Shown here piece by piece: positions 5,607 through 7,162 of a stretch of DNA of 15,376 nucleotides. Within the stretch, counting starts at the first letter, position 1. Each line of letters opens with the position of its first letter. The translations under genes and the position numbers were made by a program. Origin of the DNA: a virus. The stretch lies in the UHGV virus genome UHGV-0041029. One strand, given 5' to 3'. A model generated the notes under the pieces. That model was not told where the DNA came from, ran no database searches, and saw nothing but the letters and a program-made list of their open reading frames with translations.

Positions 5607-5822
5607 ATGAAATCCATGGATAAGTTAACAACGGGCATCGCCTACAGCACCTCTGCAGGCAGTGCTGGCTACTGGTTTTTACAGTTGCTCGATAAAGTCA
5701 CGCCCTCACAGTGGGCGGCAATAGGTGTATTGGGTAGTCTGGTATTTGGCATGCTGACGTATCTGACAAATCTTTATTTCAAGATTAAAGAAGACAGGCG
5801 TAAGGCTGCGAGAGGAGAGTAA
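5607..5822 (+). CDS. essQ: Class II holin / pinholin (phage 21 S21-like) with dual-start motif
   Basis: 71 aa beginning MKSMDK (Met1 and Met4, the S21 antiholin/holin dual start), with ggaggtgagg RBS. Two TM segments and a basic C-terminus ([13 protein letters not shown]). The track ORF at 5523 is an in-frame N-terminal extension without RBS support. Confidence 0.85.
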
Positions 5823-5826
5823 TCCA

Positions 5827-6138
5827 ATGACTCAAGACTATGAACTGGTTGTGAAAGGAGTCCGTAATTTTGAGAATAAAGTTACGGTAACTGTAGCCTT
5901 ACAGGACAAAGAACGCTTTGACGGTGAAATTTTTGGCCTGGATGTCGCCATGGACCGTGTTGAAGGAGCTGCGCTGGAGTTTTATGAGGCAGCAGCCAGA
6001 ATGAGCGTCCGGCAAGTCTTCCTGGAAGTAGCAGAAAAATTGTCAGAAAAAGTTGAGTCTTATCTGCAGCATCAGTACTCCTTTAAGATTGAAAATCCTG
6101 CCAATAAGCACGAGCGTCCTCATCATAAATATCTATGA
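5827..6138 (+). CDS. ydfR: Lysis-cassette protein of unknown function, YdfR-like
   Basis: 103 aa, RBS gagaggag. Wedged between holin and endolysin, with its stop overlapping the endolysin start (ATGA). Length and position match ydfR of Qin as recalled. Confidence 0.7.
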   Translation: MTQDYELVVKGVRNFENKVTVTVALQDKERFDGEIFGLDVAMDRVEGAALEFYEAAARMSVRQVFLEVAEKLSEKVESYLQHQYSFKIENPANKHERPHHKYL

Positions 6139-6668
6139 ACACAAAAATCAGATACGGCCTGTCGGCTGCCGTTCTGGCGCTGATTGGTGCTGGCGCATCT
6201 GCTCCTCAGATACTTGACCAGTTTCTGGACGAAAAAGAAGGTAACCACACAATGGCATACCGCGATGGTTCTGGCATATGGACCATCTGTCGGGGTGCCA
6301 CAGTGGTGGATGGAAAAACCGTTTTTCCCAATATGAAACTGTCGAAGGAAAAATGCGACCAGGTCAACGCCATTGAGCGTGATAAGGCGCTGGCATGGGT
6401 GGAGCGCAATATAAAAGTTCCACTGACCGAGCCACAGAAAGCCGGTATCGCGTCATTCTGTCCCTATAACATTGGCCCTGGTAAGTGTTTTCCGTCGACG
6501 TTTTATAAGCGGCTTAATGCCGGTGATCGTAAAGGCGCATGCGAGGCGATTCGCTGGTGGATAAAGGACGGTGGACGTGATTGCCGCATTCGTTCAAATA
6601 ATTGTTACGGTCAGGTTATTCGTCGTGACCAGGAGAGTGCATTAACCTGCTGGGGGATAGAACAGTGA
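6135..6668 (+). CDS. rrrQ: Phage lysozyme (GH24 endolysin) with N-terminal signal-anchor-release (SAR) domain
   Basis: 177 aa. Weakly hydrophobic Gly/Ala-rich N-terminus ([15 protein letters not shown]) followed by the lysozyme catalytic region ([20 protein letters not shown]). Pairs with a pinholin, as in phage 21. Confidence 0.85.
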
Positions 6669-7162
6669 ATCAGATATTCACGGTGATTTTGCTCGTGTTG
6701 GTAGGATTTGTCGTAGGTAATGTCTGGAGCGACAGAGGATGGCAAAAAAAATGGGCGGAGCGTGATGCTGCCGAATTATCTCAAGAGGTAAATGTCCAAT
6801 TTGCTGCTCGAATAATTGAACAGGGGCGAAGTATATCCCGTGATGAGGCTGTTAAAGATGCACAACAGAAAGCCGCTGAAATTTCTGCCAGGGCTGCTGA
6901 TCTGTCTGATAGTGTTAACCAGCTGCGTGCCGAAGCAACAAAATATGCCATACGCCTTGACGCAGCGCAGCATACCGCAAATCTTGCCGCTGCCGTCAGA
7001 GGCAAAACAACCAAAGCCGCCGAAGGAATGCTCACCAACATGCTCGGAGATATTGCAGCAGAAGCTCAGCTTTATGCTGAAATTGCTGACAAACGCTACA
7101 TCGCAGGAGTGACTTGTCAACGGATTTATGAATCTTTAAGAGATAAAAAATATCAGATGTAG
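6665..7162 (+). CDS. rzpQ: Rz-like i-spanin (inner-membrane spanin subunit)
   Basis: 165 aa with GTG start overlapping the endolysin stop. N-terminal TM ([15 protein letters not shown]) and an Ala/Gln-rich coiled-coil-like periplasmic domain. Contains an embedded +1-frame lipoprotein ORF. Confidence 0.8.
6858..7112 (+). CDS. rzoQ: Rz1-like o-spanin (outer-membrane lipoprotein) embedded in the Rz frame
   Basis: Entirely inside the Rz gene in the +1 frame. Signal peptide with lipobox (LIVLTSC) and a Pro-rich mature part ([18 protein letters not shown]). GAGG lies 9 nt before the ATG at 6858; the alternative start at 6843 has no RBS. Confidence 0.6.

Follow-up and report, generated by a model that had tools for sequence, protein, structure and literature searches.

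An intact Qin-type lysis cassette in a decayed prophage is largely shared with viable coliphages

The closest described relative of the locus analysed here is the lysis cassette of the Qin prophage of E. coli K-12 (b1556-b1553 and b4689), whose five products are 71, 103, 177, 165, and 84 aa long. A search of the literature on the function of essQ, rrrQ, and rzpQ yielded two relevant papers, both with promoter and stress-expression tables only. Two other systems provide the mechanistic reference: phage 21 and the DLP12 prophage, with S21/EssD, R21/RrrD, and Rz/Rz1, and the Stx phage 933W, with S, R, ant, Rz/Rz1, and bor. Among Stx phages, the combination of a pinholin and a signal-arrest-release (SAR) endolysin is near-universal (PMC8136144). 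A module of the order S-ydfR-R-Rz/Rz1, followed by a cspI-like gene, is also carried by the isolated temperate coliphages HannyBb, mEp460_ev081, PhiR42_1, Tritos, and 2H10. The notion that mEp460_ev081 is a laboratory-evolved recombinant that acquired the Qin cassette was ruled out, because infant faeces are the natural source of this isolate.

The window, the whole stretch of 15,376 nt analysed here (UHGV virus genome UHGV-0041029), contains five intact genes at 5607-7162, all of which are uninterrupted when their open reading frames and translations are read:

5607..5822, plus strand: S, class II pinholin of the P21 holin S family, 71 aa, ATG start (PF04971, 117.6 bits, cut-off 26)
5827..6138, plus strand: ydfR, soluble acidic protein of 103 aa, DUF1327 (PF07041, 173.5 bits, cut-off 25, covering the full profile, 1-93)
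6135..6668, plus strand: R, predicted SAR-type endolysin of the T4-lysozyme family, RrrQ type, 177 aa (PF00959, 84.5 bits)
6665..7162, plus strand: Rz, i-spanin of the rzpQ type, 165 aa, GTG start (PF10721, DUF2514, 131.6 bits; phrog_312 'Rz-like spanin', 197 bits)
6858..7112, plus strand: Rz1, o-spanin lipoprotein of the rzoQ type, 84 aa, in the +1 frame (phrog_11621 'Rz-like spanin', E 2e-8)

This region is very probably the lysis module in the late operon of an E. coli lambdoid prophage of the Qin type (essQ/essD, ydfR, rrrQ, rzpQ, rzoQ). The first-pass annotation had listed a dual-start pinholin beginning with MKSMDK, a 103-aa open reading frame, a SAR endolysin, and Rz with an embedded +1-frame Rz1, free of frameshifts and joined by overlapping start and stop codons. 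All of these genes were recovered and all five frames read through; the overlaps hold at two of the three junctions, ATGA between ydfR and R and GTGA between R and Rz, but not between S and ydfR, where a 4-nt spacer intervenes (TAA tcca ATG). The Pfam and PHROG scores greatly exceed what chance would give; NCBIfam has a specific model for none of the five proteins.

The cassette is already annotated and very common, and is therefore not new; it is properly called the Qin-type cassette, essQ(essD)-ydfR-rrrQ-rzpQ/rzoQ, as annotated in K-12. Many E. coli chromosomes contain the same DNA at 100% identity, with the genes named essD, ydfR, rrrQ, and rzpQ by RefSeq, and a full-length copy is present in 2,097 of the 5,426 complete genomes of the species (39%). 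In a spread sample of the ∼2,100 cassette-bearing genomes, the four annotated genes are listed under all of the ∼17 matches that span 91% or more of the cassette. K-12 Qin has the same five genes in the same order, with the same junctions and lengths, and the two cassettes are colinear and ∼95% identical (79 of 1,556 nt differ). Over its first 150 nt, S is a different allele, with 29 differences, which accounts for the name essD given to the window S by RefSeq. The neighbourhood is likewise shared, with ydfU, rem, and hokD upstream, cspI, ynfN, and gnsB downstream, and the ydfJ side. The order hokD-rem-ydfU ... cspI-ynfQ-ynfN-gnsB ... ydfJ is found both in K-12 and in strains identical to the window over 5400-7400, which match it at 99.7% over the aligning 85% of its whole length. 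Differences lie further upstream, where the window has lipocalin, YbgA, and AraC-type genes and a terminator in place of cspB/cspF of K-12, and where its Q (125 aa) belongs to a different family from the 250-aa YdfT of K-12.

The S protein has the features of a pinholin. Translation from Met1 gives the 71-aa form and from Met4, at 5616, a 68-aa form. The starts are preceded by GGAGG and GAGG, the GGAGG Shine-Dalgarno sequence lying 7 nt upstream; by analogy with S21, both are probably used. The hydropathy prediction called for in the first-pass annotation gave the pinholin pattern of a weak, SAR-like TMD1 and a strong TMD2. TMD1 (region 8-26) is weakly hydrophobic, composed of 63% G/A/S/T and below the hydropathy threshold, TMD2 (residues 34-58) is strongly hydrophobic with a peak of 1.91, and the C-terminal tail is basic and charged. 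S is 94% identical to EssD of K-12 DLP12 and 80% identical to S of 933W. The exact allele is absent from the phage collection, in which the best allele is 95.8% identical. At positions 14 and 49, the two differences from EssD that were checked, 933W S differs as well. S has a dN/dS of 0.07, a lineage signal of purifying selection.

A SAR-type N-terminal domain was likewise found in R by hydropathy and homology. The domain spans approximately residues 7-27 (52% G/A/S/T) and is preceded by Lys-4 and Arg-6; the hydrophobic stretch at 5-28 peaks at 1.69 and contains no cysteine, the residue used in caging of the P1 Lyz type. The catalytic triad Glu-35/Asp-44/Thr-50 aligns with the E35/D44/T50 of RrrD and R21. 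Structural matches include R21 (3hde/3hdf) and RrrD (4zpu), with alignments extending through the N-terminal domain; the HMMER alignment to 3hde begins at residue 9. An A-G-A and an A-S-A motif lie at positions 19-23, at the end of the hydrophobic stretch, and A-S-A is followed by a proline. A proline at this position blocks signal peptidase I. R is predicted to be a SAR endolysin rather than a signal peptidase substrate, a distinction that sequence alone cannot decide. R is 89% identical to 933W R and 33% identical to RrrD/R21. Compared with K-12 rrrQ, it carries 18 synonymous and no non-synonymous differences. The gene has no Shine-Dalgarno sequence of its own, and its start lies within the ATGA overlap with the ydfR stop.

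The spanin pair has an embedded architecture. Rz contains a single N-terminal TMD (residues 1-25, peak 2.72), a long periplasmic domain, and one cysteine (Cys-151). Rz1 lies wholly inside Rz, from 0.39 to 0.90 of its length, a position that fits most embedded spanins, which start at 0.4-0.5 and end at 0.9-1.0 of the i-spanin length (PMC6139136). Its lipobox, LTSC, predicts a mature lipoprotein of 62 aa with nine prolines and three cysteines. Alternative in-frame starts are present upstream, an ATG at 6843 (identified by eye from the translations) and a TTG at 6816. The Rz1 coordinates are the same as those of annotated K-12 rzoQ, and the gene is intact in all six aligned cassettes. No similarity of Rz/Rz1 to DLP12 RzpD/RzoD, which represent the lambda and phage 21 Rz-Rz1 families, was detectable by alignment. 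At the level of sequence, the spanins appear to form a family unrelated to the lambda/phage 21 pair, though the embedded two-component architecture is kept.

In YdfR, no hydrophobic stretch or TMD was found by hydropathy scan. The ydfR Shine-Dalgarno sequence lies within the 3′ end of S. The conserved core (approximately residues 1-74; pI 4.6) comprises three β-strands and one long helix and is followed by a variable, disordered C-terminal tail. The AF2 model places the strands at 5-14, 18-27, and 34-43 and the helix at 50-72, with pLDDT values of 66-87 over residues 1-70 (10-residue blocks). The protein is 98% identical to the main family cluster and differs from K-12 YdfR at two residues (G37D and M59R); the ydfR haplotypes show only two differences, both non-synonymous, which are too few for an informative dN/dS. 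A profile search of 1.84 billion representatives recovered 75 family members, restricted to Escherichia and Shigella, and no link to other families; Pfam scans of the longer members found no second domain. [quoted passage not shown] In the same study, overexpression of YdfR produced no growth defect and few transcriptome changes, RNase E was the sole partner reported, and RNA-seq under standard growth gave almost zero ydfR reads, from which the authors infer an unexpressed cluster. This link to RNase E is recent and preliminary.

The position of ydfR invites the view that it is an integral lysis regulator acting on the pinholin or the SAR endolysin, for instance a cytoplasmic timer of the antiholin type, in which case the cassette would stand apart from the phage 21 system as a regulated version of it. 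In each of the nine contexts examined, ydfR begins 3-4 nt past the end of a P21-type S, while the downstream junction varies, and the overlap of the ydfR stop with the R start couples the two genes translationally in the window. In addition, the Keio ydfR deletion was envelope-leaky in a CPRG screen, and a search of the hits by name did not find essQ, rrrQ, or rzpQ, although in our reading the result could be a polar effect, with the kan cassette driving rrrQ. The regulator view is nevertheless unlikely. YdfR has no TMD, its overexpression effects were slight and RNase E was its sole reported partner (PMC13232886), and a distant 72-aa homologue adjoins a tape-measure-like gene rather than a holin. 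Moreover, ydfR is dispensable, since 933W lacks it and, among phage records, a YdfR homologue occurs in only 100, compared with 438 that have a P21-type S. We conclude that ydfR is an optional element tied to the 3′ end of the holin gene.

Transcription of the cassette is predicted to depend on features further upstream, the promoter and terminator calls being consensus matches only:

2087..2464, plus strand: Q, a 125-aa antiterminator of late genes, predicted to drive transcription of the cassette (PF06530 Phage_antitermQ, 171.6 bits, intact over profile positions 1-118 of 118)
2436..2586, plus strand: pR′/tR′-like pair directly after Q (promoter-like site at 2436-2465 and terminator-like hairpin at 2563-2586; consensus scan)
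5485..5506, plus strand: terminator-like hairpin with a T-run after it, lying 100 nt before S (five of the seven pairs are G-C, and TTTTCTTTTT follows; consensus scan)

The 'antiterminator Q family protein' is also annotated by RefSeq in a strain identical to the window over 5400-7400, and the pR′/tR′ assignment is made by analogy with the lambdoid late promoter layout. No promoter-like site was found by consensus scan between the 5485-5506 hairpin and S. The cassette would therefore have no promoter of its own and be reached only by Q-antiterminated transcription from the pR′-like site, 3.1 kb upstream, with the Q-modified transcription reading through the terminators at ∼2563 and ∼5485. In K-12, a sigma-70 promoter upstream of essQ has been reported to be silenced by H-NS. 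Q-independent expression thus exists in a relative, but the upstream DNA of the window differs from that of K-12. The early and immunity region lies beyond the window limits.

For the window allele, the steps of lysis can be proposed from family membership and the phage 21 paradigm. S would be made in its Met1 and Met4 forms, with the longer form delaying triggering, and would build up in the inner membrane until TMD1 exits the bilayer, upon which TMD2 would form small pinholes, of ∼2 nm in this holin class and impassable to the endolysin, and collapse the membrane potential. R, exported via Sec, would be held tethered and inactive by its weakly hydrophobic SAR domain until depolarisation frees it, and the E35/D44/T50 lysozyme would then digest murein. 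Rz in the inner membrane and the lipoprotein Rz1 in the outer membrane would span the periplasm as a complex and destroy the outer membrane. In this scheme, ydfR would be an optional cytoplasmic passenger at the exact S/R junction, translated from the Shine-Dalgarno sequence that serves R in 933W and coupled to the translation of R by the ATGA overlap. Viable phages have working lysis modules without ydfR.

The intact cassette stands next to decayed virion genes. The decay of downstream tail genes pointed out in the first-pass annotation is borne out: the large terminase ends after 123 of the 294 positions of its nuclease-domain profile, the tape measure is represented by a C-terminal piece only, gpL by profile positions 1-64 of 206, and gpJ by a single FNIII-A fragment. 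No portal or capsid-family match was found among the seven long ORFs scanned. Since other genes of the window (Q, ydfU, rem, hokD, cspI, a DUF1441 Nu1-like gene, and gpM) are also intact, the contrast is one between the cassette and deletion-riddled morphogenesis genes rather than a sign of a generally frameshifted element, and the decay proceeded mainly by deletion.

This contrast had been taken to suggest retention of lysis function or domestication. Under domestication, selection on the bacterium would keep the cassette intact regardless of any phage life cycle, through benefits such as programmed or altruistic lysis, a supply of DNA or vesicles to biofilms, or a part in stress responses. 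Such selection could be read from the full-length copies in 39% of complete E. coli genomes with the four genes in all ∼17 sampled matches, from the strong purifying signature in R and S, and from the K-12 operon having its own H-NS-silenced promoter and reported cold and stress induction (PMC13232886 among the sources). A passage in PMC3945230 also cites the DLP12 lysis module as an aid to biofilm. The comparison with isolated phages makes domestication quite unlikely. From ydfR to the end of Rz (1,340 nt), HannyBb has no difference from the window, so that four of the five genes are identical; mEp460_ev081 has two differences over ydfR through Rz, and PhiR42_1 none from the K-12 Qin cassette in 1,556 nt. 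These coliphages are complete, plaque-forming or inducible, and have full morphogenesis genes; their S 5′ halves are unlike that of the window. With zero divergence from a viable phage, no time has elapsed for decay, and the purifying signal could have been earned wholly in phages and imported by recombination. Further, the window has a terminator directly upstream and no promoter-like site, hardly any ydfR reads were seen in standard-growth RNA-seq (PMC13232886), and no host phenotype is specific to the cassette genes, the CPRG hit of the ydfR deletion being one among hits in several other Qin genes.

Intactness is therefore no sign of domestication here. The cassette is very probably intact because it is practically the same DNA as that of currently viable phages and because the deletions missed it; host selection for lysis is unnecessary to explain what is an ordinary state. 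The cassette would have come by recent acquisition or recombinational exchange with viable phages, and genetic exchange of defective prophages with active lambdoid phages has been shown by experiment (PMC3945230). It is very improbable that the cassette is a silent relic, open only for want of time, never expressed, and perhaps with a non-functional S: the identity of ydfR through Rz to a viable phage does make intactness uninformative on selection, the terminator upstream without a visible promoter and the absence of the exact S allele from the phage collection also agree with it, but all features needed for function are present, Q is intact, S positions 14 and 49 vary in 933W S too, and this view largely overlaps with that of exchange with viable phages, differing only on whether S works. 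The main value of the analysis is this negative result, as an intact lysis cassette in a gutted prophage resembles domestication. Identity with phages and decay driven by deletion fit the view that cryptic prophages are working late-gene reservoirs for incoming lambdoid phages.

The first-pass label 'phage 21-type' applies to architecture and mechanism but, by descent, to S only. With phage 21 and DLP12, the cassette shares the holin family and dual-start motif, the SAR endolysin class with its triad at identical positions, and the embedded spanin architecture. DLP12 differs in having no ydfR, so that S abuts R, in an endolysin of only 33% identity, and in spanins of the lambda/PF03245 type rather than DUF2514. 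In 933W, S and R are 80% and 89% identical to those of the window and S is followed by the same 4-nt spacer, but R occupies the ydfR slot and ant lies between R and a lambda-type Rz/Rz1; 933W R is itself annotated as 'similar to R protein of Qin'. The sequence comparisons thus indicate a mosaic cassette that is phage-21-like by descent in S only.

For YdfR, another set of systems offers a lead only. T4 Srd, T7 gp0.7, and phiKZ Dip are small proteins with which phages act on RNase E of the host. YdfR is likewise a small phage-encoded cytoplasmic protein, for which RNase E binding is reported in K-12 (PMC13232886), but it is a late-operon gene product of a temperate phage, and no sequence or fold relationship to the three was found. 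YdfR may tentatively be viewed as a late phage effector locked to the pinholin gene and acting on RNase E through its acidic 72-aa β-β-β-α core. Such an effector could possibly work by RNA mimicry and protect or re-route late transcripts, or tune the S:R ratio and lysis timing. If so, the Qin-type cassette would be a lysis module with a built-in modulator of RNA decay.

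The cassette at window positions 5607–7162 comprises five genes, four of them in a row on one strand and the fifth embedded in the last of the four.

5607–5822, + strand: S (holin), 71 aa, N-terminus MKSMDK; PF04971 'P21 holin S', 117.6 bits
5827–6138, + strand: ydfR, the 103-aa ORF; PF07041 (DUF1327), 173.5 bits
6135–6668, + strand: R (endolysin), 177 aa; PF00959, 84.5 bits
6665–7162, + strand: Rz, 165 aa, GTG start; PF10721 (DUF2514), 131.6 bits, and phrog_312 'Rz-like spanin'
6858–7112, + strand: Rz1, 84-aa lipoprotein gene in the +1 frame within Rz; phrog_11621 'Rz-like spanin'

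The Pfam and PHROG scores leave no room for chance in these family assignments. Every ORF is uninterrupted, and the dual-start holin, 103-aa ORF, endolysin and Rz/Rz1 pair described in the first-pass annotation are all present without frameshifts. The overlapping start and stop codons described there are found between ydfR and R (ATGA) and between the 3′ end of R and the Rz start (GTGA), but S and ydfR are separated by a 4-nt spacer. S contains an in-frame second start at Met4, with GGAGG and GAGG motifs ahead of both starts. Its first transmembrane domain (TMD) is weakly hydrophobic (63% Gly/Ala/Ser/Thr) and the second strongly so. The R N-terminus has basic residues followed by a cysteine-free hydrophobic stretch (52% Gly/Ala/Ser/Thr). 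These predicted hydropathy features fit the pinholin and SAR endolysin mechanism, as had been proposed. Rz has a single N-terminal TMD; Rz1, with an LTSC lipobox and a 62-aa mature part containing 9 Pro and 3 Cys, occupies 0.39–0.90 of the Rz length, inside the range given for most embedded spanins (PMC6139136). For this cassette we infer that S forms pinholes, that the SAR domain stays uncleaved and that the spanins act.

Many E. coli chromosomes contain the 2-kb cassette region at 100% identity. The matching loci carry the RefSeq names essD, ydfR, rrrQ and rzpQ and lie between ydfU/Q and cspI, adjoining ydfJ, at the locus of the Qin prophage. In the cryptic Qin prophage of K-12, essQ-ydfR-rrrQ-rzpQ is colinear with the cassette and ∼95% identical, and an embedded rzoQ is annotated there also. 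Among complete E. coli genomes, 2,097 of 5,426 carry the cassette at full length. The cassette is thus a Qin-type lysis module, already catalogued rather than new, and its mechanism class is established.

The DNA upstream of the cassette differs from that of K-12 Qin. Three cargo genes (2620–5416) separate Q from S, in the place taken by cspB/cspF in K-12 Qin.

2620–3144, minus strand: lipocalin
3337–4296: YbgA-family gene
4703–5416: AraC-type HTH regulator
5485–5506: terminator-like hairpin, 100 nt ahead of S

A consensus scan found no promoter-like site between the hairpin and S, and an intact Q gene with a pR′/tR′-like pair is located 3.1 kb upstream of the cassette. Together these features suggest that cassette expression should depend on Q. 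On the 3′ side, an Rfam cspA thermoregulator match (7368–7784, + strand, 110 bits; gathering score 78) spans the leader and CDS of a cspI-like cold-shock gene directly following the cassette. The cspI/ynfN/gnsB block is also found 3′ of the cassette in viable phages.

The reported decay of the downstream morphogenesis genes is real. Positions 10186–14309 form a chain of deletion junctions, starting with a large terminase from which the greater part of the nuclease domain is gone; the long ORFs scanned gave no portal or capsid-family match.

11953–12798: tape measure, C-terminal piece only
12798–13127: gpM, whole
13137–13523: gpL N-terminus, first 64 profile positions
13436–13909: gpJ, one FNIII-A fragment
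13890–14309: tail-fibre assembly piece

A full-length Rfam IS009 match (14071–14269, + strand, 212 bits; gathering score 117) lies within the tail-fibre-assembly gene fragment. The closest E. coli genomes cover only 85% of the window, and about 2 kb of tail remnants kept here is absent from them. Q, ydfU, rem, hokD, cspI and the Nu1-like DUF1441 gene are whole, and nearby a single frameshift was seen, which affects gnsB in a strain that matches the window exactly across 5400–7400. Since many other genes are whole and the morphogenesis losses are deletions, the lysis cassette is no lone survivor in a frameshift-riddled element.

Alignment of the cassette with those of K-12 Qin and four isolated phages resolved two haplotypes, each found in viable phages as well as in cryptic prophages. 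Over the 1,340 nt that run from ydfR through Rz, the window shows no difference from phage HannyBb (bird faeces) and two from coliphage mEp460_ev081 (infant faeces). The 1,556-nt K-12 Qin cassette shows none from PhiR42_1 and five from Tritos. With zero divergence from a working phage copy, inactivating mutations are not expected, and intactness is therefore uninformative on host selection. Between haplotypes, R has 18 synonymous and no non-synonymous differences and S has a dN/dS of 0.07; purifying selection on both is clear from these counts, but it can have been earned in phages. Host domestication, one of the two explanations offered previously, draws on the high prevalence of the cassette in E. 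coli genomes, an H-NS-silenced promoter reported for the K-12 operon and reported stress or cold induction. Identity with viable phages accounts for intactness, however, and domestication, a less probable reading, is not needed. The intactness of the cassette is explained by its identity with circulating phages together with the deletion-type decay around it.

The haplotype differences are mosaic, which points to recombination: S opens with ∼150 nt in which the window departs from the K-12/HannyBb allele at 29 positions, the ∼650 nt after that (the rest of S, all of ydfR and the 5′ half of R) contain only two differences, and from there on they number 5–9 per 100 nt. A recombination breakpoint lies inside S (5607–5760, its 5′ two-thirds). 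No phage in the collection has this exact S allele; the closest S there is 95.8% identical at the protein level. Lambdoid phages have been shown experimentally to acquire DNA from K-12 defective prophages, and R, Rz and nu1 of the K-12 prophage DLP12 are functional in lambda (De Paepe et al., PMC3945230). Most simply read, the cassette is part of a pool of late genes moving between active and defective lambdoid elements. In the reference phage mEp460, S and a 104-aa YdfR are followed by R and an Rz of the lambda type; mEp460_ev081 has a Qin-type ydfR-R-RzpQ-cspI-ynfN-gnsB block instead, which looks like a natural case of right-arm replacement by Qin-like DNA.

YdfR is the only thread of the cassette worth further work. 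The 103-aa protein, previously given no known role, is by sequence YdfR (DUF1327), a known family whose K-12 member has a reported partner. The family is very small and confined to lambdoid elements of Escherichia/Shigella: it forms 257 clusters at 90% identity, and a profile search of 1.84 billion proteins found 75 representatives at 50% identity. Conservation is limited to the first ∼72–77 residues; the C-terminal tails vary in sequence and length (72 to 287 aa, over five PHROG families). YdfR has no hydrophobic segment and an acidic core (pI 4.6). Its AlphaFold model, of moderate confidence, contains three β-strands and a long helix, and fold searches gave no usable match.

In nine contexts examined, ydfR starts 3–4 nt past a P21-type S gene (context set: the window, K-12, HannyBb, PhiR42_1, Tritos, mEp460_ev081, mEp460, BP-4795, PhiR12_2, Evi and a metagenomic Stx-like contig). 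Between ydfR and R the arrangement is not fixed: the two genes overlap, lie 50 nt apart or are parted by opposite-strand genes; the window R lacks an SD and would rely on the ATGA overlap. In Stx phage 933W the same spacer leads from S straight to R, and a YdfR homologue occurs in only 100 of the 438 phage records that have a P21-type S, indicating that YdfR is optional and inserted where S meets R. A distant 72-aa DUF1327 homologue (P0166; 446–664 of its DNA, L004) directly follows a gene with a tape-measure-like C-terminus (…VHGGEFVFTK…) rather than a holin; the core domain is thus not strictly a lysis-cassette component.

[quoted passage not shown] Most likely, YdfR acts on the RNA metabolism of the host as a non-essential late-operon passenger; that it helps to time lysis is less likely. 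The Keio ydfR deletion did score in a published CPRG envelope-permeability screen, as did deletions of ydfU, ydfA, ydfB and ydfD, other Qin genes; no hit was found there for essQ/ydfS, rrrQ/ydfQ or ydfP (rzpQ). For ydfR, an obvious alternative would be that the kan cassette has a polar effect on rrrQ, and kan-cassette read-through into toxic prophage genes may underlie the Qin results.

The label 'phage 21-type' holds for the mechanism class (pinholin, SAR endolysin, embedded spanin) but, by descent, for the holin only. DLP12 (essD-rrrD-rzpD/rzoD) and the PDB entries for R21 stood in for phage 21. Against these, S is 94% identical to the holin, whereas R is only 33% identical to the endolysin, in an alignment running from the N-terminal hydrophobic domain onward with Glu35, Asp44 and Thr50 at equal positions. 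No similarity was detectable between the cassette Rz/Rz1 and those of DLP12. R is instead 89% identical to that of 933W. By descent, these comparisons identify the cassette as mosaic: its S is of the P21 family, its R of the Qin/933W type and its spanin pair of the DUF2514 type.
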